The notes under the pieces were generated by a model. It saw only the letters and a list, made by a program, of their open reading frames with translations, did no database searches and was not told where the DNA came from. Position numbers and translations under genes: made by a program. A stretch of DNA of 64,000 bases from Octopus sinensis. Taxonomy: Eukaryota. How positions within the stretch are numbered: position 1 is the first letter of the stretch; each line of letters begins with the position of its first letter. Location of the stretch: the NCBI RefSeq assembly GCF_006345805.1, contig NC_043001.1, positions 68,324,001 to 68,388,000 on the forward strand. The letters run 5' to 3'. Shown here piece after piece: positions 6,780-52,648 of this stretch.

Positions 6780-7315
6780 CATATATATACATATAATATA
6801 TATATATTCTATATATATATATAATATATATATATATACATATATATATATACATATATATATTACATATATATATCCATACATATTGAAGCTCTCCTTT
6901 CTGGTTCACATCCACAGACTAGTTTAATATACTCCACACACACACCCCACATAGCCCCTACGCACACACACATACACACACGCACATGCACACACATACA
7001 CACACACATAACACACACACACACAGCATATACATACACGCACACACGTACATACGCATGCGCACACATACTTGAAACTGCCAGTCAAACACCTTTCTAC
7101 TGATCATTCCTCTACGCATATGCGAAGAGATACACAACTACACAAAAAGACAGTCACAGCTGCTACCGTGCTATTGTATTCTTCCTACAACATTTTAAGC
7201 GACACAAATTTCACTCACACATACACATATAAACAGCCAAAACGACACACTCGCCATACACACAACACTTAGAACACAAATGCGCACACACACGTGCTAT
7301 TACACACACACGTGC

Positions 7316-7353
<38 letters not shown>

Positions 7354-7379
7354 ACACAGACTTGCGCGCATGCACACAT

Positions 7380-7650
7380 ACCTCCTTCCCTGACACTCCC
7401 CTGTCTTAGAAAGAATGTTTTATTCACCCATTCCCTTCCGGTCATTTCAAAATGTAACCGCATGTGAATCGTTGGCGATTTTTTTCCTCCGTCTTCCTTT
7501 CTATTGGACTTTCCTCTGTTACCAAAGAAGAGCGTTGCTCGAAACGTTAAACAATTTTCTTTCCTTCCCTCAGCGTCTGCTAATACTTTACATGAACCAT
7601 GTCCTCGCATTGTTGTGTTTTTTGTTTCGATTTACTATCATTATTAATAA
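7380..7650 (+). mobile_element. PLE 3'-end module with degenerate minimal hammerhead
   Basis: gaagagcgttgctcgaaacgtt near 7527-7548. The downstream tract resembles 11220-11350 and 37350-37480. Confidence 0.5.
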
Positions 7651-8141
7651 TACATATATATATTATTAATGATAATAATATGACACTCGCATGGAACACA
7701 TGCATGCACCCCACACACCTACATGTATACATATATATGCATTCATACACATGTACACATATACATATCCGCACACACGCACACACAAGTATATATACCC
7801 ATACGCGCACAATTATGTTCATATACATGTCTCTATACGCACACGCAAAATATGCAGGGTTGAAGGTAATGTACAGAAAAAATATATAAAAATATATATA
7901 AAAATATGTAAAAATATAAAAAAATATATGTAAGAAATGAAAAGCGTGTACGTGGACACAATATAAAAAGCAGGTTCTACCTGTGATCTGTGTACGTGCG
8001 CGTGTGTGCACGTATGTACATGCGCGCACACGCGGATTCTATGAGCGTGGGTTTACCTTCTTTGAGTATTTTTACTATCACTTTCTATTCGGGTAACTTC
8101 CTTTTATTTAACGGTCATTTTCATAGCATTTTTATTTGTCT

Positions 8142-8204
8142 TAATAACTGAAGAGATGCCGGAGCAGAATTCCGCCCCGACATCCGAAACTCTGAGTTTT
8201 ATTA
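8142..8204 (+). ncRNA. Type I hammerhead ribozyme
   Basis: TAATAA-CTGAAGA-GATGCCGG...CCGACATC-C-GAAA-CTC-T-GAG-TT^TTATTA. Stems I, II and III all pair, with a GUU cleavage triplet. Confidence 0.8.
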
Positions 8205-8362
8205 TGGCAACCGACTCTAATTGTCACATATTATATATATATATATATATATATAATATGTGACAAAACGAGGACATTTGAAATAGTAACCGCGAGTTTA
8301 CAAGTCTGACTTTGTGCGGACGTCCTAGTATGCAGTCCTGCAAATTCTATTCATCTGGACGG

Positions 8363-8434
8363 TCGCACCGATGATCTACGGACATTTACGTAAGTAAAAT
8401 TACGTAATATATTAATAGTGAAACATGTATGTGA
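8363..8434 (+). ncRNA. Type I hammerhead ribozyme, CCGAUGA core variant with long stem II
   Basis: TCGCA-CCGATGA-TCTA...TTACGTAA...TTACGTAA...TAG-T-GAAA-CATG-TA^TGTGA. Stem III is palindromic (ACATGT). Confidence 0.7.
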
Positions 8435-8689
8435 ATAATCCATATTTTTATTGCTTTTTCTTTTGTCTTCCTCGATTACGTTTTGGTCGTTTTGCTAAAT
8501 TTTTCTTGAGAACATTTCTTAGTGGTAAGACCATAGCGGATCTATTTCTAGCATAAGGGTGTCCACATAATGGTTTCCCTCTAATATGTATATAATACAA
8601 TTTCACTGAGCCTTCAGTTTTTTATATGCTAGACCACTGATGTGAAATCGATGTTAATTTAATTAATATCTAATTTCTCACACTCATTA

Positions 8690-8844
8690 TATATTACGGA
8701 GATGTACTTGCATAGCCAGTGACTTGATCGGAGATCGTGTGCTAGAACGAAAACAATTGCAGCGTGGAAGGTGTTTATAAGCCATTTAAGAAACACACAA
8801 AAACCGTTAGGTTCACTTCAACATTTAAACACCTTCCACGCTGC

Positions 8845-8849
<5 letters not shown>
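8690..8849. repeat. Short repeat fragment with a 23-bp inverted repeat
   Basis: aattgcagcgtggaaggtgttta (about 8755) is inverted at taaacaccttccacgctgcaatt (about 8826). The fragment ends in (TA)n. Confidence 0.6.
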
Positions 8850-8907
<58 letters not shown>

Positions 8908-9144
8908 TAAGGGTAGAAATTGATATTTATCAATTAAGACCAGTGGTCTAGCCATATAAAAAAGAATCCGAAGATTAAAATATTTATATATACCAATTAA
9001 GGACTGAACAAAAAGAGTGGACAGTCAACATGCTAGATATGACGTCAAATCGCCATTCACCACAAAAGATTATGTTCTCAGATCAAACTCAACACAAACC
9101 CCTAGCAATAAACAAGTGAAAAATATACGAAATAAAATAATTAC

Positions 9145-9210
9145 CCATGTACTAAATTAGTTTCAGCCTGTTATTTTCCGCAAGGAAAACTGCAGCCATC
9201 ATCAGCATGG
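9145..9210 (-). ncRNA. Type I hammerhead ribozyme
   Basis: Reverse complement: CCATG-CTGATGA-TGGCTG...TTTTCC-TTGC-GGAAAA...CAGGCT-GAAA-CTAATTTAG-TA^CATGG. Confidence 0.85.
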
Positions 9211-9797
9211 TCCGTTATAAATGTAATTTGCTGGACTAGATGAACACGATACCGAAATATCGCGTGTATGGAGTTCAGCCTATTACATTTGAATATATCT
9301 TTCAAATGCCTTTACTTTGGCGCGTTGGAGCCCGAGAAAACTAGCCTGCAGCTAATAATTAGCAGCAGTTAATTTATCGGTTAGAGAACATGTTTATTGC
9401 TATGGTTTTGTGTTGAGTTTGATCTGAGAACATAATCTTTTGTGGTGAATGGCGATTTGACGTCTATATCTAGCATGTTGACTGTCCACTTTTCGTGTTC
9501 AGTCCTTAATTGGTATATATAAATATTTTAATCTTCGGATTCTTTTTTAATATGCTAGACCACTGGTCTTAATTGATAAATATCAATTTCTACCCTTAAT
9601 TAATTTTATTAAATAAATATGTTCTCTAACCGATAAATTAACTGCTGCTAATTATTAGCTGCAGGCTAGTTTTCTCGGGCTCAACGCGCCAAGTAAAGGC
9701 ATTTGAAAGATATATTCAAAGTAATAGGCTGAACTCCATGCACGCGATATTTCGGATCGTGTTTGCATCTAGTCCAGCAAATTACATTTATAACGGA

Positions 9798-9862
9798 CCA
9801 TGCTGATGATGGCTGCAGTTTTCCTTGCGGAAAATAACAGCTGAAACTAATTTAGTACATGG
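9798..9862 (+). ncRNA. Type I hammerhead ribozyme
   Basis: CCATG-CTGATGA-TGGCTGCAGTTTTCCTTGCGGAAAATAACAGCT-GAAA-CTAATTTAG-TA^CATGG, with a GUA triplet. Confidence 0.88.
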
Positions 9863-10299
9863 GTAATTATTTTATTTCGTATATTTTTCACTTGTTTATT
9901 GCTATGGTTTTGTGTTGAGTTGATCTGAGAACATAATCTTTTGTGGTGAATGGCGATTTGACGTCTATATCTAGCAGTGTTGACTGTCCCTTTTCGTGTT
10001 CAGTCCTTAATTGGTATATATAATATTTTAATCTTCGGATTCTTTTTTAATATGCTAGACCACTGGTCTTAATTGATAAATATCATTTCTACCCTTAATT
10101 AATTTATATAAATAAATATGTTCTCTAACCGATAAATTAACTGCTGCTAATTATTAGCTGCAGGCTAGTTTTCTCGGGCTCAACGCGCCAAAGTAAAGGC
10201 ATTTGAAAGATATATTCAAATGTAATAGGCTGAACTCCATGCACGCGATATTTCGGTATCGTGTTTGCATCTAGTCCAGCAAATTACATTTATAACGGA

Positions 10300-10364
10300 C
10301 CATGCTGATGATGGCTGCAGTTTTCCTTGCGGAAAATAACAGCTGAAACTAATTTAGTACATGG
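10300..10364 (+). ncRNA. Type I hammerhead ribozyme, tandem copy
   Basis: Same sequence as 9798-9862, about 502 bp downstream. Confidence 0.88.
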
Positions 10365-11221
10365 GTAATTATTTTATTTCGTATATTTTTCACTTGTTTA
10401 TTGCTATGGTTTTGTGTTGAGTTTGATCTGAGAACATAATCTTGTGGTGAAATTGGCGATTTGACGTCTATATCTAGCATGTTGACTGTCCACGTTTCGT
10501 GTTCAGTCCTTAATTGGTAATATATATATATATACTGGTTCTCCACGCCTGTCCGCCGGGACCACTCTTCCATCTTTCCCTCAGCTGCAGTTTTTTTCTT
10601 TCCCTTAATACCCCCCCCCTTTTTGTACACACACGCACACACATGCACACACCCACTCACACACACACTTTTGCATACGCACACGCACACACCCACTCAC
10701 ACACACATTTGCATATACATATACATTACACTTACACACACGTCAAATTTACTTGCCATACATACAACTACGCACACTGGACACACACACACTACCACTC
10801 AACACACACACTGGCACGTTACATACGCCCCCACCCCTTCCCCCTTCCCTTCTTCCCTTCTTCCCTCCTTCCTCCTTTTTTACCACTGACCACTCACTTG
10901 AGACTTGCTATGTCAACTACTGTTCGCCCTACCAAACACACTTACATACAGACGCACGCACTAACATATACATATATTTTTTGTTTTTTTATCTCGCCTC
11001 ACACACACATACACACACGCACACGCACACACTCACACATACATACACATCATTTTTTGTTACCAACCTTCCTGTCTCCACTCTTTTGGCTTTAAAAACC
11101 TACTTTGCCCTTGTTTTCCAAAACTTCCGGTCTTTCACATGTGTACCTCGTAAACACCAGTCGCGTTTTTTTCCCCTCTTTCGCCCAACTCGGATCTTTC
11201 TTCTTTCTCTTCCTTCTCTAT

Positions 11222-11256
11222 GTTTCCGACGAAGAGCTCCGCTCGAAACGTCATAC
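11222..11256 (+). ncRNA. Minimal hammerhead (CCGACGA variant) in a PLE 3' module spanning about 11060-11352
   Basis: GTTT-CCGACGA-AGAGC-TCC-GCTC-GAAA-CG-TC^ATAC. Stem I has one mismatch and stem III is reduced to ACGT. Confidence 0.6.
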
Positions 11257-11355
11257 CCTCCTTCTTCCATTTTCCTGAGCGCCTAATAATAATAATACTG
11301 TAATTGTTCCACGTGTTGTTGTTTTTTTCTGTTTTCCCGTTTGGATTAACCTATA

Positions 11356-11396
<41 letters not shown>

Positions 11397-11472
11397 ACAA
11401 TTCTTAACAATAAATTATTTTTGAACTGCATGTCGGGTAAGAAAAGTATTTCGGAATAAATTTAACAATTGA

Positions 11473-11528
11473 GTTCTGCTGAGGATCATAAGACGTAAGT
11501 TAAATGTGAAATCATGGTGATACAGAAC
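11473..11528 (+). ncRNA. Type I hammerhead ribozyme
   Basis: GTTCTG-CTGAGGA-TCAT...ATGT-GAAA-TCATGGTGA-TA^CAGAAC, with a 6-bp stem I and an AUA triplet. Confidence 0.8.
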
Positions 11529-11950
11529 TAAATTCATTTTTTAAATGTCTTGCTTTGAAGAGCTGCATTTAGGTATGATTAGTGTAATTTTGGTAGTAAT
11601 GACTTTGTCCCTCTTAGTGTGAGGCATTTATGTGTAATAATGCCCTCTATACAATATAGATATAATTAATTTGTTCAAAAGAAAAAAATTATTTTCGAAT
11701 TCTTTTCTTTTATGAGGTTTTCACGCTAACTACCTGATAATTTCTTTTTAAGATTCCTTATTAAGAGGTTATCCTCAATTGTTAAATTTATTCCGAAATA
11801 CTTTTCTTACCCGACATGCAGTTCGAAAAAGCCCGCCATTTACCGGATATATGATTTATAAACATTCCATGTGCTTGGCCGGAGTGAATAGATGTCTGTT
11901 CGTCTTCGCTAGGTAAGGTTGGTGGTTTATTTATGATGTGTTCAGAATCA

Positions 11951-12006
11951 GTTCTGCTGAGGATCATAAGACGTAAGTTAAATGTGAAATCACGGTGATA
12001 CAGAAC
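11951..12006 (+). ncRNA. Type I hammerhead ribozyme, tandem copy
   Basis: GTTCTG-CTGAGGA-TCAT...ATGT-GAAA-TCACGGTGA-TA^CAGAAC. Confidence 0.82.
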
Positions 12007-12454
12007 TAAATTCATTTTTTAAATGTCTTGCTTTTGAAGCTGCATTAGGTATGATTAGTGTATTTTTGGTAGTAATGACTTTGTCCCTCTTAGTGTGAGG
12101 CATTTATGTGTAATAATGCCCTCTATACAATATATATATATATATATATACATACATATGTCTGTAAGTATCTATGTAAGTATCTATGTTTGTATGTATG
12201 CACGCTTATTTGTGTACGTTTGTGTGTGTGATTGTCTCATTGCCTTGACATAGGGCAATAGTTTCAAGCAAGTGACAATTTCAGGCAAGAAGTGTTCTTT
12301 GTTTTCATGCACCATTTTCTCTCATTAATAGAACTGTCAGCATTTCTGATGACATACATATGCAGTTATATATATATATGTGTGTTTGTGTGTGTGTGTG
12401 TGTGTGTGTATGGTATGTATGTATGTATGTGTGTATGTGTGTGTGTGTATATAT

Positions 12455-12652
12455 TACTTGTTTCACTCACTAGACTGCGGCCATGCTCGAACATCGCCTT
12501 GAGTTTTCGGTCGAATGAATCGACTCCACTACTTATATTTTTAACTGTTGTTCTTATTCTATCATTAAGTTACGGCGACCAAACACACCAACGCTGGATG
12601 TGAAGCGATGATGGTGGGGTCAAATATAAAGACACACACACATACACAGACA

Positions 12653-12701
<49 letters not shown>

Positions 12702-12846
12702 GCGCGGTGGGCTTCTTTCAGTTGCCGTCTACCAAATCCACTCACAAGGCTTTGGTCAACCCGAGGCTATAGTGGAGCACACTTTCGCAAAGTGCCATAC
12801 AGAATCATGTGGTCGGAAAGCAAGCTTCGTATCACATAGCCACGCC
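12455..12846 (-). mobile_element. tRNA-derived SINE family B
   Basis: The minus strand reads ggcgtggctatgtgatacgaagcttgctttccgaccacatg...ccaaagccttgtgagtggatttggtagacgg, homologous to 20950, 23398, 35225 and 50060. Confidence 0.8.
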
Positions 12847-13051
12847 ATATATATATTTGTATTTTTTCAATGCGTACAAATAACACGGAAAAATAAATAA
12901 ATAGTACCATGGTAGCAAAAAGTCACATAAGTGCCAAGGATATTATAGTTTACTTATAAAGGTAGAAATCCAGGGTTAAGTGTAATGTTTTTGTATAATA
13001 TGGATAAATTAAGAAATAGAATTAAACGCAGGTGTTATTCACTTCTTTATA

Positions 13052-13139
13052 CTTCCGACATATGTTTCGAAGAAAACATTGATATTATTCCGGATGGAAT
13101 AAAATAATGTAAAATAATGCAATCATCTCATCAGGGAAA
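13052..13139 (-). ncRNA. Type I hammerhead ribozyme with long stem II
   Basis: Reverse complement: TTTCC-CTGATGA-GATGATTGCA...TTTTCTTC-GAAA-CATATG-TC^GGAAG, with a GUC triplet and palindromic ACATATGT. Confidence 0.75.
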
Positions 13140-13360
13140 GAGAGAGAAACAAAAAGCCATTTTAACCGAATGTGATTACCACGTATATGATAAAGGGGAA
13201 CGCTGGCATGTTATTTAAAAAAAAAAAAACTGTAAATAGATTAAACGACAAAGGCAATTTAGCGAAAGAGGTGGAGGAAAAGAAAGAAATTAACAGGAAA
13301 TTAAGAGTTAAGGAAATAAAGCCTTAAATGGATTATTGATGAGTTTTGTTTCTCTTTTTT

Positions 13361-13448
13361 TTTCGCTGACGAGATGATCGCATTGTTTTACATCATTTTA
13401 TTCCCTCAGGAATAATATCAATATTTTCTAGTAAACATATGTCGGAAG
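13361..13448 (+). ncRNA. Degenerate inverted copy of the 13052-13139 hammerhead
   Basis: CTGACGAGATGATCGCA...GTAAACATATGTC^GGAAG. The GAAA box is mutated. Confidence 0.5.
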
Positions 13449-13610
13449 TATAAAGATTTGAATAACACCTGCGTTTAACACCATTTCTTAATATATATAT
13501 GTATATATATTTTCAATTAATCAATTTAGGGTAGCAAAAAATTCAGTAAAAATTTATCGCTACCAGCGGCCTAGTGGAAAAGAGAAAATAGTCAAAGACT
13601 AAATGTATAT

Positions 13611-13990
13611 AAATATAACAATTTAGGAATGGCCTAAACAGGCCATTCGTCCACCAGAAAGAGCAGCCAGAACTCCAACCGCCAAGTAGTGCAATTCGGA
13701 AATAAGGTGAAAATTTAAAAACGTTTACCCTAATTCATCTTTTATACGATGCATCGTTTCAGTGTCTTTAATGATAGACCAGCTTAATTAAATTAAATTA
13801 AGCTATAGCTTAATTTAATTAATTAAGCTGGTCTATCATTAAAGACACTGAAACGATGCATCGTATAAAAGATGAATTAGGGTACTTTTTAAATTTCACC
13901 TTATTTCGATGAACTTGGCGGTTGGAAGTTCTGGCTGCTCTTTCTGGTGGACGAATGGCCTGTTTAGGCCATTCCTAAATTGTTATATAT
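13611..13990. repeat. About 380-bp near-perfect palindrome (fold-back) with the 3' half of a hammerhead on each arm
   Basis: The centre is agctatagct (13801-13810). Each arm carries GAAA-CGATGCATCG-TA. The left arm extends to about 13510 with a family 3'-end motif. Confidence 0.85.
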
Positions 13991-14070
13991 GTATATATAT
14001 ATATATTATATATATATAATATATAGATATATATATATATAATATATATATATATATATAATAATATATA

Positions 14071-14132
<62 letters not shown>

Positions 14133-14135
<3 letters not shown>

Positions 14136-14660
14136 ATAGAATAATTCTATATAAGTTATTATTCATATTCATAATTTTGTTTAGAGTGGTGATGGGGTTT
14201 TTAATAGTATATTGCCGAGTAGAGAATGCTAATGTATGTGTGGCTGAATGTATGTATCTGCTGAATTTGTTACTCCTCTGTGTTCGAGTGGCGGTGGGAG
14301 TGGTGTTGTGTGTGAGTGATTGTGTGTGTGTGTGTGGGTGTGCATTGTTTATGTGTAGAAAAGTTGTTTTCTTTTGAGTGTTTATGTATGTGTGAATGTG
14401 TGTGTGTGTGTGTTTGTTTGCGTATTTGTGTATGTTTGTTGTATGCATGTGGTATTTGGAATATGTGTGTGTGTGTGTTTGTTTTAAGTATTTATGTATG
14501 GTGTTGTATATATGTGGTATATGGTATTAGGTAGTTTATTGCTAAGAATGAAATGTTTCTGTTGTTGTGGTTGAGTATTTGCGGATGCTGGATGTGTGGT
14601 TGTCATGCAGACTGAGTGTGTTTATAAATGAGGGTTGTTTGTGTGTGTGGGAGTACGAAT
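14133..14660 (+). repeat. About 520-bp TG-rich direct repeat, copy 1 (the empty site for the LINE)
   Basis: Matches 15653-16034 joined to 18951-19100. Confidence 0.85.
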
Positions 14661-14926
14661 GCATGTGCATGGGTATGTGTGCATGTGTGCGCGTGTACAA
14701 GTGCATGTGTAGATGCGAGTTGCATGAGTGCTATGTAAATGCGTGTGCTTGTATATGCACTTGTATACATGCATGTTTGAATGTGTGTGAGATTGCACCA
14801 GTTTGCGTGTACACACTCATATATACATATGATAAATATTTATTTATTTATTTTTGTGAATGTGCGTATTTTTATATATATGTGTATTTGATGATATGTG
14901 TGAGTGTATATATATATATATATATA

Positions 14927-14988
<62 letters not shown>

Positions 14989-16034
14989 GGATGTATATGT
15001 ATTTATTTAGTTATCTGTATGGGTGTGGGTGTGAATATATTGGTGTATTTATCGAGTATTGTACGTATGTATATGTATGTGTGAGTGGGTATAGGCATAT
15101 GTTTGTGGGTGTGTGTAAATATGTGTGTGTATTTGTGTGTGAATGTATTTATGAGGGGACTGCTATATAGGTTTATTAATGTGTATTTGGTAAGAGAGGT
15201 TTTATCATTATATTTGTATGTATGGTTTTCGTTTATCATGATTGTTTTATTAATGAATTTTTTAGTAAATTCAGTCTATTTCCGTTGATTTACATATTAT
15301 TCCATTCTATTCCATTCATAATATTTAAATAACGTTCGTTCATCACGTGCAAAGGTTTTATTAAAAATATATTCTATTTCTATGATAACGTATTTTTGTA
15401 AACGCTATAACAGTTAGACATTAAAATTCACTTCATAACTTAAAATAGAATAGAAGGTATTATTTTAGATCTCCTATCTTAATTTTAATTGTATATGTAT
15501 AAGTTTTTGTATAATATATTCTCCTTATGTTAAACTTGTTGTTTATGTATTGATCTATTTATCGTACGTTTCTTTGTTATTAGTTATTAAATAATTTAGA
15601 CATACTTTGATAAATAGATAGATTCGTTTTTAAATGGTTTAGATTACGTTTAATAATAGAATAATTCTATATAAGTTATTATTCTTATTCATAATTTTGT
15701 TTTAAAATGGTGATGGAGTTTTTAATAGTATATTGCCGAGTAGAGAATGTTAATGTATGTGTGTGGCTGAATGTATGTATCTGCTGAATTTGTTACTCCT
15801 CTGTGTTGGTGTGGCGGTGGGAGTGGTGTTGTGTGTGAGTGATTGTGTGTGTGTATGTGTGGGTGTGCATTGTTTATGTGTAGAAAAGTTGTTTTCTTTT
15901 GAGTGTTTATGTATGTGTGAATGTGTGTGTGTGTGTTTTTTTGTTTGCGTATTTATGTATGTTTGTTGTATGCATGTGGTATTTGGAATATGTGTTTGTG
16001 TGTTTGTTTTAAGTATTTATGTATGGTGTTGTAT

Positions 16035-18950
16035 GTTAGTTAGTTAGTTAGTTGATTTGGCTCAAAAGCAAATAGCAAGGCCATATAGGGGGACATGGAG
16101 TTAAGTACAGGGTGGTGTTCATGTAAAGAGTTCAGGCCACTTGAGGTCCAGGGAGGCTTTGAACAAAGCGGTCGTCGGCATCTTCACCATCTCGTCTGGC
16201 AGCTTGTTCCACGGATCCGCAATCCGGACGGAGAAAGCTCCTCTCCTTCGATTGAGATGAAATCGTCGCAGGTAGAGCTTTTCGGAATGACCCCGCAGCC
16301 GACGCTCCGGAGCAGGAGTGAAGAACAGCTCTTTCGAGAGGTTACACTTCCCTCTTATGATGTTGTGGGCGAGAATGAGATCACCACGGCGGCGGCGTTT
16401 TTCAAGAGAATAAAGGTCGAGCGTCCTCAGCCTTTCTTCGTAGGACAAATTTTTGAGACCATGAACCATGCGGGTAGCCAGCCTCTGGACTCTTTCGAGA
16501 TGCTGTATGTCTTTGAGGAGATAAGGAGAAGAGGCTTGAATCCCATACTCCAATATGGGTCTCACCAGCGTGACATAGAGTGGTAGGAATATGGCTGCTG
16601 TGAGCATTCCGAATGACCGTCGAATCAAAAACAGAATTCCGCGCGCTTTGTTGGCAGCATGGACGCACTGGGCCGAAGGCGAAAAGGAGGAATCCACCAA
16701 GATACCCAGGTCCTTTACCTGATCGGTCCTCTCCAGCAGCAGACGACCCGGCTCGAAATCAAGTTGAGTTGCAGGAGTAGAGCCGACAGGCAGATAACAG
16801 CACTTTGACACGTTCAGACACAGGTCCCAATCGTTAGACCACTTCCAAATTTGGTGGAGGCATCGACGAAGATCCTCTATACTACCGCGAGGAGCGACCA
16901 GTTTGATATCGTCGGCAAATAGAAGGGTGTGTTGCGTGAGGTCGTCGGGCAAGTCATTTATGAAGACTAAGAACAACAAGGGCCCAAGCACTGAACCTTG
17001 AGGCACGCCACTGCTCGCACTGGAGACGTCGGACCGCGCGAACCATTAACTTGAACTTGGAAGGAGCGATCTGAGAGGAAGGCACCAACCCATCGTACAA
17101 TATCCGGATGGAAACTATATGCTTGAAGCTTGACAAGTAGTAGGCGGTGGTTTACCGAGTCAAAAGCTTTGGCAAAGTCCAATAAAACGATGTCAACAGC
17201 ATCACTATCATCGAGGATGCGCGTCACCAATTCTTCCATTACTAGTAAGTGGGTCAAGCATGATCTCTTCGGTACGAAGCCGTGTTGGGAATCAGTGATC
17301 GAGGCTGTGTTTAGGAGGTGGAGCATCATACTTTTCTTAAGGATGGTTTCGAACATCTTGCTGATTATTGATGTAAGGGAAACCGGTCGGTAGTTAAGCG
17401 GGTCTTCGCGGCTCCCTTTCTTGAAAATTGGGCAGATTATCGCTGTTCTCCAGTCTGCAGGTATAACACCCGTCGCCAATGACATATTGAATAGTCGTGT
17501 GTAAGGGCTCGCAGATGACCGGAGCCAACGCTTTGATAACCCGTGGGTGTATGCCGTCAGGGCCGTGACCCTTGTTGACATCGAGGCCTTGACTAACACG
17601 TTTGACTTCGTCCCGCGTGATTACCAATCGAAGCATTGGAGGTACCGATCTATCAAATGGAGGGGGTTCACGACGATCATCTTGTTTGAAAATAGTTGAA
17701 AAAGCCTCGGCAAATAATTGACTCTGTTGATAAGGGTCCTCAATCGATACGCCTGTTGAGTCTACCAACGTTGCAATCTGGTTGTTCAAGCGGGAATTCC
17801 GCTGGACATGGGCAAAGAAGGTATTTGGATTGCTACTGGCATTTGCCGCGATTTTGTATTCATAACTGAAGCGTTCTTTCTTTTCAATTTTCACGGCTCG
17901 GTCTCGTTGAGTTTTGTACACCTCAAAAGCTGCAGTCGAATCCAGATTTTTGAATTCAGCCCAAGCAATATCTCTGAGTCGACGTTCCCGTTTAACCTTC
18001 TTCATCACCCAGGGCTTGTGTTTCTTCCTCTTGGGAAGCCCAACGGGAACTGCCTGGTCAGTCAAACAGATTACATATGCTTTGAGGGATGACCATAGTT
18101 CGTCAACTGAGGACAACGTCATCAGGGATCGCCAGTCCAGAAGCGTGGAAGCCTCGGTTAGAATTTCAAGATTAATTGCAGAGAAGACTCTACGTGGCAG
18201 CGAAGTAATCGTGGGCGTAGAAAAAGTTGTGTGCATGACGAACTTCAGGACCGCATGATCACTCTTGGCAAGAGGGGCGCACACAGATACGTCTGACACT
18301 GATCTTGGATAGCGGGAGAATATCAGATCTAGCATAGATGGCTGCTGCCCAGACCGATGCCTTGTCGGATATTCAACATGTTGCGATAGAAAACGATCTT
18401 CAGCCACGTCAAGAAGGGCCTGGCCGAACCGGGAAGATGTTGTACAAATTGATGCGGGCCAATCGATCGTGGGAGCGTTGAAGTCGCCTAGTACCAAGCA
18501 GTCATGCGAAGCTGAAACGAATCTTATCGCTTCGAGTAGATGAGCATCGTCCTGGGGTCGGCAAGAGGCGGCCTGTAGACAGCCAACACGGGCAGGCAAA
18601 ACTCAGATAGGCTCAGCTTGCAATAGACGGCATCGAATTTTGTTGTAGGTTGAGCATTTGTGTGGGTAGAATACCGCAGGACGGTTTGTGCTCAGACTTA
18701 ACATACACAGCAACACCTCCACCTCGCCTTTTTCCTCTGTCACATCTGAAAAGGACGTAGCCCTGCAGGTGGATTTCTGAGTCCTTTACTGCTGGAGTCA
18801 GCCAAGTCTCGGTGATAGCTATCACATCAGGGGAGTCACGTATGGCCAGTGTAAATAGTTCACTGAACTTTGGGAATAAGGAGCACGAGTTGGTGTAGAC
18901 GATGCTGAGCTGTGAAGTCTGAGGGGCGGGAGTTGGGGAACAAGCAGAAT
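16035..18950 (-). mobile_element. CR1/L2-group LINE, 5'-truncated, with (TAAC)n 3' tail
   Basis: Near-complete APE-RT ORF2, a gttagttagttag tail at 16035-16054, and higher GC than the flanks. It is inserted at gttgtat|atatgtgg. Confidence 0.92.
16119..18940 (-). pseudogene. LINE ORF2 (APE endonuclease plus reverse transcriptase), about 3 frameshifts
   Basis: APE motifs: IVYTNSCSL, DVIAITETWL, RRGGGVAVYV, VLGDFN, SDH. RT motifs: GPDGIHPRVIK, NYRPVSLTS, QHGF, LDFAKAFDSVNH, PQGSVLGPLLF, FADD. CR1-type C-terminus: RRRRGDLI. Confidence 0.9.
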
Positions 18951-19507
18951 ATATGTGGTATACGGTATTCGGTAGTTTATTACTAAGAATGAAATGTTTC
19001 TGTTGTTGTGGTTGAGTATTTGCGGATGCTGGATGTGTGGTTGTCATGCAGAGTGAGTGTGTTTATGAATGAGGGTTGCATGTGAGTGTGTGGGAGTACG
19101 AATAAGTAATGTGTTTAAGTATACGGCTACTTTATTAATTTATCATTACCTAGATGTTTATGTGTATGTATAGAGATATATTTACGGGTGTGTGAGTTAG
19201 TGTATGTATTTAGATATGTTTATATATATACTTAGATATATGTGTATGAGCATGTGTGTTTATACATTTTAGTTTATTTTTGTATTTTGAAATTAGATTA
19301 TTCATCTTTAAATATGAGAACTTAAATACTAGGTTTCTTTATATTCAATTGTTTATAGAGGTTAATTTAGTTCTTGATTATATATAGATTATATATAGAT
19401 TATATATATATATATAATATATTTTCATTGATAAATTTATATTATTTATAGTTTTAGTCATTTTAAATTTATATCTTAAAAATATTGATTATTTTTAGAT
19501 CTGAAAT

Positions 19508-19553
19508 CCACCTGATGAATGTCCTGAGAAGAGACATGAAACAATTGTAGTGG
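19508..19553 (+). ncRNA. Type I hammerhead ribozyme, textbook minimal form
   Basis: CCAC-CTGATGA-ATGTC-CTGAGAAGA-GACAT-GAAA-CAATTG-TA^GTGG. It lies about 100 bp before the (TA)n. Confidence 0.9.
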
Positions 19554-19652
19554 TGAATATAATTTTATTTAATTTATATTAAAATATTTTATGTATTGGA
19601 TTAAGTCTTTCTGTGTTGATTTGCAAAATAGTGGTTTTGTCTCTAATTAATA

Positions 19653-19765
<113 letters not shown>

Positions 19766-19773
19766 ACACACAC

Positions 19774-19831
<58 letters not shown>

Positions 19832-19904
19832 GTATCTGTGTGTGTGTGTGTGTGTGGTGTGTGACGATTAGGTAAGGGGTGCCGAATTTTACAATTCTGT
19901 AAAT

Positions 19905-20305
19905 AGTCCTTTCTGCTAAAGGCACAAGCTCTGAAACTTTAGAGGACGGGGAACCACTCGTTTAAATCGACCCCATTGTTTTATTGGTACTTAATTTATC
20001 AACCTCGAAAGGATGAAAGGCAAAGTTGACCTCGGCGCAATTTGAACTCAGAACGTAGCGGTAGACGAAATACCTATTTCTTTACTACCCACACGGGGCT
20101 AAACACAGAGAGCACAAACAAGGACAGACAAACGTATCAAGTCCTTTATATCGACCACAGTGCGTAACTGGTACTTATTTAATCTACCCCGAAATGATGA
20201 AAGGCAAAGTTGACCTTGGCGGAATTTGAACTCAGAACGTAGCAGCAGACGAAATACCGCTGAGTATTTCGCCCGGCATGCTAACCTTTCTGCCAGCTCG
20301 CCGCC
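19905..20305 (-). mobile_element. SINE family A, internally duplicated (dimeric) form
   Basis: Two tandem cores are separated by ...ctttactacccac...acagag...aaacaaggacagacaaac. The same layout occurs at 26005-26400. Confidence 0.85.
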
Positions 20306-20949
20306 TTCAAGTTTGTAAATGATAATAATGAAATTTTTTCAAAAGCTTAAAGGTTTCAAGCGATCACCGTTATATTGACTAAAGAAAATATCCTAGCATG
20401 TATGTATTTATGTATGTATGTATGTACACACATGCGCGCGCACACACACACACACACATACGCACACCCACCCACACACGCACACACGTGCCCCCTCCCT
20501 AAACACATGTTTGGTACATATGCAAATCACTCATTTTAAGTAACATTGCTTCTGTCTTGAACTATAAAATAAGAATTTAATGAGAACAAAAAGATTCAAT
20601 ACTTTAAAGAGTTACTTCCCATAGAACTTAAATACCATGAGTAGCTTCCCTTATATTAAGCTATTGCTTATTGAATGATTTCCTTTTCTGGATCCAATGG
20701 AGTAGAGCTTTCTATGCGAAACCTTTTCTTTCTTACTGAAATGTTGTACCGTTTGCTTGAGTGAGGGCTATCTAGGTCTGCTTAGAGATTCCAGATCTCA
20801 TTCAGCCCCACTCGTATTGTAACTTAGAATTTCTCCGTCATTGTCACCATCGTTTACACGGCAACGACAACGGCGATGACCACACCCATGGCTTTACTCG
20901 CAGCTAGCAACACCAGCAGCAGCAGCATAATATCTCCAGCTAATGTATA

Positions 20950-31366: not shown

Positions 31367-32993
31367 CACTGGCGAAAATAAATCTAAGACCGATCATAAA
31401 AGTTCTATTTCTTGCAAAATATTTTGTTACTAACACCATAAAAATTATTTTTATCTTTTACACCTTATGCAGAATTTATTTCTCTGATGCAGACAATAAC
31501 TATTTTTATACAGCTTGAAGAATACTAATGCTAAATTAATATAAACGTTTCAAATTTACCGACAAAATCAGTTTAAAACCATGTAATATGTATGCAAATT
31601 TTTTTGCCAAAATGGGTGGTCACACAACGAGCCTAACTGCACTATAAAGTGTTGTAATTTAAAGTTATTATACAATTGATTAATAATGGGAAAACAACGT
31701 AGCCTCAGTCCAGTCACGAAAGCAAAAATCGTATCACTCCACCAGCAAAAAGTTTCCTTTTCGAACATCAGCAAGCAACTAAAGTGCAGTAAAACGGCTT
31801 GCTTGCAAGCGTGGAAGTATACTCGGAGACTGGTCAATATAAAGATCGGCAAAGTACTGGCGCCCCAAGAAAAATGACGGCGCAGTTGGACCGTCGAATC
31901 CACCGACTTTCGGAAGGCAACTGAATGCTGACAGCTGTTGACATTTGTAAACAATTGTCCAACGAGAATGGTGTTATTTTTACACCACAAACTGTCCGCA
32001 ACCGTTTGTGAGAATTTGAACTACATGGAGGAATCGCTTGGTAAAAGCCAATAATATCCGAAAGAAATCAACACGAACGCCTTAATTTCGCAAAAAGTCA
32101 TGCTCAATGGACTGCAGAAGATTGGTGCTGGGTCCTTTGGAGTGACGAATCACGCTTCTGTATATTTGGATCAGATGGTAAAACATACGTCAGACGTCGC
32201 CCAACCGAGGAATTCCATCTGAAATGCGTGAAAAAGATGGTGCAAGCGTGGGTGGGGGTCTGATGGTGTGGGCGGCATTTAGTAGTTTTGGTGTTGATCC
32301 TCTAGTTAAAGTCGATGGAAAGCTAAATAGTGTAGGTTATATGAATCTACTAAAGGATAATGTTGTGTCATATTTGACTCATCAAATGCCTCCGGGGGCT
32401 ATTTATCTGCAGGACAATAGTCCTGTGCGCAAAGCCAAAACGGTTAAGGAATCTTTTGATCACCATAATATTGACGTAATCGAATGGCCTCCCCAGAGCC
32501 CGGACCTGAACCCGATCGAGAATCTGTGGGATTATGTTTCCAAAAAAGTCCATGCCAAAAAACCATCTAATCTAAAACAATTATTTGACTATATCAATGA
32601 AATATGGCAAAACATTCCCATAGAATTTTGTAATCACTTAGCGAATTCAAAGCCGAGGCGTTGTTAAGCCGTTATTAAGAATAAAGGCTACGGCACAAAG
32701 TATTAATATTATTTCGTTCTTGTTGCTCATTTTTGCTACAGTCTTAAGCTTTAAATAAAATTATAATGATACGGTCTTAAACTAATTTTGCCGGTAAATA
32801 TGAAACGTTTATATTAATTTAGCATTAGTATTCTTCAAGTTGTATAAAAATAGTTATTGTCTGCATCATTCGAAAGAGAAATAAATTCTGCATAAGGTGT
32901 AAAAGATGAAAATAATTTTTATGGTGTTAGTAACAAAATATTTTGTAAGAAATAGGACTTTTATCATCGGTCTTAAATTTATTTTCGCCAGTG
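31367..32993 (+). mobile_element. Full-length Tc1 (DD34E) transposon with about 215-bp IR/DR-type TIRs and TA TSD
   Basis: TA|cactggcgaaaataaat ... atttattttcgccagtg|TA. The long TIRs are at 31367-31583 and about 32770-32993. Confidence 0.93.
31686..32706 (+). pseudogene. Tc1 transposase, frameshifted
   Basis: HTH N-terminus MGKQRSLS..., WSDES, GGGLMVW, and QDN-x-WPPQSPDLNPIENLW with 34 aa between the second D and E. Confidence 0.9.
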
Positions 32994-51849: not shown

Positions 51850-52648
51850 TCTTGAATGAATTTCAATTTTCAAATAATGCCATAAATTTTCAATGGGGTT
51901 CATGTCAGGTGACTGACTTGGCCATTCTAATAATTTTATATTGTTATCTACAATCCATTTTTTTGGTAGACTTCACCATGTGCTTAGGATTGTTATCCTG
52001 TTCTAAAACCCACCCTTCACAAAGCTGGAGCTTATCTACAGAGTCCCATAAATCATTGTTCAAAATATTTTGGTACATCTCTGCATTCATTCTACTATCT
52101 ATCTCATGTAAATTGCCAGTACCATTTGCAAAGAAACACCCCCACACCATGATGTTGCCACCTCCAAACTTTACGGTAGGAATTGTGATTTTCAGCAAAT
52201 AGGGTGTACCATCTTTCCTCCGAACATGCCTACGCGAATTTCGTCGAAACAATTCAATTTTCGACTCGTCTGTCCATAGAACATTTTCCCAGAATGTATC
52301 AGATTTATCTTTACGTTCATAAACAAATTTTAAACAGGCATCTCTATGCCTTTTAGTCAACAGCAGAGTTTTTCTAGGAGAGCATGATTTCATTTCATTC
52401 CTATGAAGTTCATTGCTGATTGTTCATAGTGTAACACTAGTCCCTGAAGCTAACAAATCTTTTTTCACCCCAAAATATTTATACTTGTATATAACTTCAT
52501 TAGTTACTATAATTTATTAGTTTCTTTTGCATATTCTTAGTTTATGCCTGTGTATGCATATATAGAATTGGTATATCCTATTTATGTTCATCAGAAATTA
52601 AATAAATAAAGAATTTTGACATGTACTAATATTTATTTCCCCCCACTG
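51850..52648 (-). mobile_element. Truncated Tc1 transposon
   Basis: TIR TA|cagtggggggaaataaatatt on the minus strand. ORF 51944-52393 contains WTDESKIELF, PTVKFGGGNIMVWGCF and QDNNPKH. Confidence 0.88.

Follow-up and report, generated by a model that had tools for sequence, protein, structure and literature searches.

A tandem and inverted hammerhead ribozyme repeat in Octopus sinensis: a probable retrozyme insertion into a TA repeat, likely copied by a PLE enzyme from both DNA ends

Results

Organization of the Locus

The window, i.e., the entire 64,000-nt stretch of Octopus sinensis DNA analyzed here, is microsatellite-rich eukaryotic DNA. The repeat on which this work is focused, designated A, consists of a (TA)26 run, an inverted arm (approximately 0.98 unit), a direct arm (2.25 units), and (TA)7, in this order. 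Positions within its 502-nt unit are given below as phases, counted from the ribozyme cut site. The (TA)26 run (8848..8899) is likely the left half of the target site, and a 15-nt TA run (10520..10534) is likely its right half. The inverted arm (8899..9391, minus strand) extends from phase 261 through the cut site to phase ~248-250 within the (TA)n run, and contains the octamer CCTTAATT of site 2 (8905..8912, minus strand) about 4-5 nt before its outer end. The direct arm (9391..10519, plus strand) comprises tandem units from phase ~36 to phase ~159, with the same octamer at site 1 (10508..10515, plus strand) located 2-4 nt before its outer end. The two arms meet head to head at 9388..9395 in an 8-nt microhomology that has one mismatch to the own continuation of each arm; only 0.9% of random phase pairs equal the quality of this match. 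An LTR-internal-LTR layout is not visible at the locus. The preliminary description of this DNA, made from the sequence, had reported a tandem array together with a full inverted unit. The tandem is real and the direct arm is now corrected to 2.25 units (9391-10519), whereas the inverted arm, running from 9391 to 8899, is some 10-12 nt short of a unit.

The unit copies are 94-97% identical, and most of the differences between them are single-base indels. Over 472 columns, units 1 and 2 show 10 indel columns but not a single substitution. The single-base indels look like long-read error. Between the inverted arm and the units of the direct arm there are approximately seven clusters of difference, some of them substitutions, which may mean that another template molecule was used, or simply that base calling was worse there.

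Hammerhead Motif and Predicted Fold

Three near-identical type I hammerheads, two on the plus strand 502 nt apart and one on the minus strand, had been described previously, and the descriptor scan recovered all of them. The minus-strand motif (9145..9210) lies in the inverted arm, with C3 at 9205, a predicted cut after 9150, and one extra G in helix II. The two plus-strand motifs (9798..9862 and 10300..10364; C3 at 9803 and 10305, respectively) are identical to each other, and their predicted cuts after GUA fall at 9857 and 10359, as anticipated. The cut-to-cut monomer (9858..10359, plus strand) is 502 nt long, with 34% GC and no ORF. The core CUGAUGA-U / GAAA / UA is present in all three unit copies spanning the motif. 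With the strict scan, seven hammerhead motifs were found in the window, versus a single one in 30 locally shuffled windows taken together. Rfam yielded no hammerhead match at the gathering threshold over the whole window, and none among the 94 matches obtained at E<=10 for positions 7000-20500, all of which scored under their own gathering scores and mostly represented miRNA models. Because of this, the hammerhead assignment rests on the descriptor scan combined with folding.

Helix I of the A hammerhead has 5 bp, an extra U follows A9, and helix II (5+7 bp) is closed by a G.U pair. Helix III is near-palindromic, being symmetric around one central U. In folding predictions the active fold lies 0-0.7 kcal/mol above the MFE in six of six contexts, circle included, and the predicted pair probabilities for helix III are low (0.12-0.26). 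Among the nine helix III sequences in the window, five are perfect palindromes, three have one central mismatch, and one has three mismatches. The two indel variants of the A helix III that occur in short-read contigs are perfectly palindromic; the fact that palindromes are kept in indel variants suggests selection for dimer folding.

According to passages of PMC4209133, the hammerheads of Penelope-like elements (PLEs) that act as dimers have a short helix I and a long helix II, carry an additional nucleotide following A9, and possess a helix III that is palindromic. The A hammerhead agrees with this type in all four features. It differs in the G10.1-C11.1 closing pair, which is described in passages of the same source as highly conserved in PLE hammerheads and is replaced in A by G.U; in addition, helix III of A (4 bp plus loop) is longer than that of the minimal PLE hammerheads. 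The G.U closure of helix II may lower the activity of the A ribozyme, and the open-access literature provided nothing usable on the effect of G.U at 10.1-11.1. For predicted retrozymes of Xenopus, eight of nine are reported to show no cleavage in vitro in portions of a recent survey (Li, Clavereau and Pollet, bioRxiv 10.64898/2026.07.22.740005).

An AUG is located at A9 of the A ribozyme core, at the start of helix II (9809-9844), and its frame closes within about a dozen codons. This codon is absent from the related family Z and from the neighboring family B (see below). The ORF of the anole PLE PAc starts at the corresponding place of its hammerhead (PMC11167929).

Coding Capacity, Predicted Circle, and Read-Through Transcripts

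The A unit read round as a circle has no ORF, the longest stop-free stretches being 36 codons in sense and 52 in antisense orientation, in agreement with the preliminary description, which had seen no credible ORF. Rolling-circle translation of A was considered and is ruled out by stops in all frames. We also considered A as an autonomous PLE and rejected this candidate, since the element contains no RT plus GIY-YIG ORF. No PLE ORF was detected among the 22 scanned of the 64 long ORFs in the window, and within these 22, RT matches are confined to an APE-type LINE (16.1-19.1 kb).

The circular MFE of the A monomer is -134.4 kcal/mol (z -6.1), with none of 40 shuffles as low; the linear fold has a z of -6.4, with none of 100 shuffles as low. 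The predicted circle is well folded and still leaves the ribozyme accessible. For a top-strand read-through transcript entering from the left flank, a fold with 529 long-range pairs is predicted, in which the inverted arm pairs with the first direct unit, in line with the earlier expectation that the inverted copy would give long dsRNA. In the same predicted fold the 9803 ribozyme is completely buried; therefore, read-through from the left would be expected to give dsRNA and no monomer. The release of a monomer by read-through, as originally envisaged, would instead need a transcription start inside the direct arm. A simple pattern revealed no Pol III A and B boxes in A, and no promoter was identified for the element.

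Outer Ends and Related Families

The octamer CCTTAATT occurs exactly twice per A unit, at phases 148 and 236. The outer ends of the two arms (phases ~159 and ~248) are approximately 90 nt apart, and each of them lies just after CCTWAATT and at one of the unit's two longest TA runs. The phases near a TA run of 6 nt or more make up 4.6% of the unit, which corresponds to 0.2% for both ends.

A diverged relative of A, family D (13510..13984), is represented by a symmetric head-to-head insertion with 67% identity to A over 131 columns (E 1e-8). In the alignment, the right arms of D and A terminate at one and the same column, and the left end of D is close to that of A. The one-end extension is ~90 nt in A and 107 in D. 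CCTWAATT precedes all four outer ends of A and D by ~2-13 nt, with a background chance of ~7e-4 per end, for a motif that was found post hoc on these two related insertions only. The exact octamer is absent from families B and Z, which have a looser version only. The preliminary description had interpreted the ends as circular permutation, a term that suggests arbitrary phases; as worded, this is not supported, since both outer ends lie at two fixed sites common to A and D. Such fixed two-site ends are a Penelope-type signature, which the preliminary description did not name.

In D, a palindromic junction near 13800 truncates the hammerhead, and helix III is a 12-nt palindrome. Family Z (8260..8690, plus strand) is present as a solo copy with 63% identity to A over 241 columns (E 3e-11), which ends near the homologue of site 2. 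The Z hammerhead at 8368 has the core CCGAUGA, and its helix I differs from that of A in sequence, yet is paired at five of five positions.

Family B (11395-12135) is a second hammerhead repeat with a 478-nt period and motifs at 11479 and 11957. Its layout is like that of A, with a short inverted arm plus ~1.4 direct units between TA runs; it has no blastn similarity to A, and the base of its helix II is a U.U. We considered whether the near-unit length of the inverted arm of A is a sign that the enzyme stops after one turn, and set this idea aside, because the single case was noted post hoc and B and D have far shorter arms.

Occurrence in Independent Sequencing Runs

Parts of the stretch are contained in 20 of 24 runs, which come from nine studies and none of which is on record as RNA. 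Four runs, X1, X6 (a DNA run), X13, and X17 (the latter two guessed to be RNA), were compared as contigs over a stretch that excluded family B. In X1 and X6, the summed contig depth of A is ~1e5 per phase versus 30-123 for single listed contigs, a figure that does not represent copy number; a summed depth this far above that of single contigs points to an abundant, dispersed multicopy family. Phases 60-250 are covered 3.6 times (X1) and 2.3 times (X6) as deeply as phases 260-502. Such an excess is as expected of 5'-truncated copies starting near site 2, and related subfamilies may contribute to it. Family Z is abundant in X1 and X6 as well.

At least six antisense-to-sense joints of family A at other phases are present among the matches listed (five of 15, plus one). 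Four of these six joints are near-palindromic at phases 59-67 and two are asymmetric like that of locus A; their shorter sides, where given, span only 22-28 letters. The head-to-head joints come from contigs of runs belonging to three studies. The own junction of locus A was not among the 32 pieces listed of ~31,000. Variants such as those at 9568 and 9578 are common in the contigs aligned to A, and a common upstream extension of the unit was not observed in the 24 listed of 873 loose-end rows.

Relative to X6, the depth of A in X13 and X17 is 2.5-6.8e-4, compared with 7.6-18e-4 for Z and ~5e-3 for the repeat at 8690-8845, in contigs that carry no strand, ends, or level. At position 10353, the unpaired center of helix III, G accounts for 66.5 of 66.5 in X13 and 15.1 of 18.8 in X17 among the matches listed, the two runs coming from two studies and their RNA status being a guess; among the matches listed for X1 and X6, G at this position is rare (0/2814 and 78/1236, respectively). 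This is a weak hint that the G-bearing contigs represent one transcribed locus. One contig of X13 bridges the A cut site; in contigs, the sequence at a tandem junction is indistinguishable from that of a ligated circle. Pattern scans found no loci in metagenome contigs and none in viral contigs.

Comparison with Known Retrozymes and PLEs

Animals are already known to harbor elements of this type. The metazoan non-LTR retrozymes share with A a tandem of non-coding units, each of which contains one type I hammerhead, a GC content below 50%, a highly paired predicted circle with a free ribozyme, and many dispersed copies; A has no fewer than two successive units whose hammerheads are complete (9803 and 10305). 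All of the sequence features tested for the non-LTR retrozyme class are present in A, which very likely belongs to it, as had been proposed earlier. Its unit of 502 nt is above the range of 150-450 bp given for metazoan retrozymes in portions of the 2020 work (Cervera and de la Pena, 2020; PMC7229834) and falls inside the 51-972 bp given in those of the 2026 survey (bioRxiv 10.64898/2026.07.22.740005). Head-to-head arms or fixed end sites like those of A are not described for retrozymes in the available portions of these two sources, and in the open-access literature exclusive of supplements, neither cephalopod retrozymes nor fixed end sites of retrozymes were the subject of any paper found. 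The word "ribozyme" has no occurrences in the main text of PMC13282606. Circles have been shown for the coral, mussel, and axolotl retrozymes; the circle of A is a predicted one.

PLEs were proposed as the mobilizer of retrozymes in part of PMC7229834, and the PLE-retrozyme link was argued by phylogeny in part of the 2026 survey (bioRxiv 10.64898/2026.07.22.740005); in the same portions, both sources call the mobilization of retrozymes, and the circle as its template, open. PLE insertions are described in excerpts of PMC8557442 and PMC3846280 as comprising a partial tandem, an adjoining inverted 5'-truncated copy, a one-end extension, and (TA)n targets. Like the EN+ PLE insertions, A has an inverted 5'-truncated copy and a partial tandem, a one-end extension, and TA runs on both sides, the targets of PLEs being AT-rich or (TA)n, as well as a microhomology junction, such junctions being palindromic or microhomologous, and two putative internal start sites. 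It differs from them in having no RT or GIY-YIG ORF, and its end sites are ~90 nt apart, not 30-40 nt as given for PLE tail extensions in excerpted text. Another relevant case is that of MRC1 and other Chlamys elements, green-algal non-autonomous PLE dependants with multicopy head-to-tail insertions, which share 3' sequence with identified autonomous partners (excerpts of PMC8557442). The A element is likewise probably a non-autonomous PLE dependant, and its insertion contains head-to-tail units. Taken on its own, mobilization of A by a PLE is quite likely, slightly less so than the class assignment.

Proposed Mechanism and Alternatives

We consider it moderately probable that A is a retrozyme insertion in a TA repeat, for which a PLE enzyme likely copied a circular monomer from both DNA ends. 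A multimeric A transcript would self-cleave at GUA, probably aided by dimer folding via the palindromic helix III, and the cleaved monomer would be ligated into a circle. A PLE RT/GIY-YIG protein would nick both strands of the (TA)n target, and reverse transcription would start inside the RNA at two fixed sites, after CCTWAATT, where the unit has its two longest TA runs. Each cDNA would then circle the template for a variable length (~1 and 2.25 turns in A), and the two cDNA 3' ends would join by the 8-nt microhomology, followed by fill-in. The two sites of A are read here as start sites because PAc was found to have two internal start sites and to extend both target strands in vitro (PMC11167929). 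The PAc start site is non-homologous to the target (PMC11167929), whereas the ends of A have TA microhomology to it.

The form of the template deserves separate attention. More-than-unit arms had been attributed in the preliminary description to reverse transcription of a circle. Both A arms cross the cut site, as a circle would allow, but an uncleaved multimer crosses it as well, so that either could have been the template. The same element and the same PLE enzyme could thus have used a linear multimer that was transcribed from a source array and left uncleaved, with circles, if made at all, as a by-product. Indeed, PAc inserts from unprocessed RNA, uncleaved RNA being its main substrate; cleavage is dispensable for its insertion, which proceeds normally with mutants of the ribozyme (PMC11167929). 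Owing to its G.U closing pair, the A ribozyme may be slow, a young source array would likewise give near-identical units, and the slight differences between the inverted and direct arms of A fit with this scenario too. The Xenopus candidates mentioned above, eight of nine of which did not cleave, also speak against a circle. A circular template is nevertheless favored by the zero substitutions between units 1 and 2, found despite the common variants in the contigs, together with the circles known for other retrozymes, namely those of coral, mussel, and axolotl (part of PMC7229834); the strong folding of the whole unit as a predicted circle with an accessible ribozyme also speaks against the linear multimer. 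We therefore regard the template of A as probably circular rather than linear, and the linear account in its complete form as unlikely, although it deserves to be kept in mind. The ~7 difference clusters do argue against one circle for both arms, and are better explained by two templates or lower base quality.

The other alternatives are much less plausible. A solo PLE pseudo-LTR or a monomer might have inserted once and become tandem later, on the spot, by unequal crossover in a minisatellite-like manner, a scenario discussed in part of the 2026 survey (bioRxiv 10.64898/2026.07.22.740005); recent duplication would also yield identical units. This is improbable, since an exact template of the full period is needed for a local duplication, almost a complete unit that spans the cut site is already present in the inverted arm, and family B has the same inverted-plus-more-than-unit layout. 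Even less credit is given to A as the 3' remnant of an autonomous PLE that had a terminal repeat of 502-nt ribozyme units and lost its ORF by 5' truncation. PLE insertions are mostly 5'-truncated and bear hammerheads in their pLTRs, according to excerpted text, and the AUG of A at the start of helix II resembles that of the PAc ORF; on the other side, the tandem junction passes from unit to unit with no coding sequence between, the frame of this AUG is soon closed, no sense frame exceeds 36 codons, and the listed loose ends share no upstream extension. The least probable alternative, to which hardly any weight is assigned, is that the inverted arm was created by a fold-back during assembly or library construction, the tandem dimer being the only real part. 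The assembly is indel-rich at the locus, and the listed contigs do not bridge its own junction. However, the two arms share neither their start phase (261 versus 36) nor their end phase, the flanks are not mirror images, both ends coincide with sites used by family D, and head-to-head joints of the same family are found in the runs of three studies; together with the abundance of the family, the differing arm phases, the unrelated flanks, and the joints found elsewhere make such an artefact unlikely.

The preferred reading, copying of a circular retrozyme monomer by a PLE enzyme, can be extended to a broader and more speculative proposal. Families 63-67% identical may keep a two-site cis-signal, CCTWAATT plus a TA run, present twice ~90-107 nt apart, from which a dimeric PLE protein would start from both target ends on ribozyme-made circles, possibly with a different RNA for each arm. 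We rate this as possible but doubtful. If true, rolling-circle retrotransposition would have left a record that can be read in the genome, and the two-site signal would define the sequence needed by a PLE enzyme to mobilize any RNA in trans. Since the class of A is known, a single locus changes little, and its value is that of a test case; the part worth following is the two-site signal common to families. Related families in the window that end at the same two sites behind the same octamer provide a concrete cis-element and a handle on the partner PLE. The tandem-plus-inverted insertions of PLEs would be explained if PLE enzymes do copy circles that ribozymes have made, using a short portable signal.

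Other Repeats in the Window

At least eight hammerhead types are present in the 64-kb window. Family C (13004-13496) has two outward-facing arms that are 86% alike; the left arm contains an intact hammerhead core at 13134 (minus strand), and the core of the right arm is decayed. Other solo type I hammerheads, different in sequence, are found at 19512 (plus strand), 51682 (minus strand), and 8148 (plus strand), those at 19512 and 51682 being situated in AT-rich elements next to TA runs. Two degenerate motifs (7509-7552 and 11213-11256), 75% alike, resemble minimal PLE hammerheads.

The LINE that accounts for the RT matches (16119-19062, minus strand) is a frameshifted APE-endonuclease/RT element (Pfam RVT_1, Exo_endo_phos), and fragments of Tc1-type transposases (DDE_3, HTH_Tnp_Tc3_2) are located at 32182-32667 (plus strand) and 51944-52423 (minus strand). 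A short element at 8690-8845 has terminal inverted similarity (8755-8777 versus 8826-8848); it is the deepest part of the compared stretch in all four runs, reaching 1.3-2.6 million in X1 and X6.
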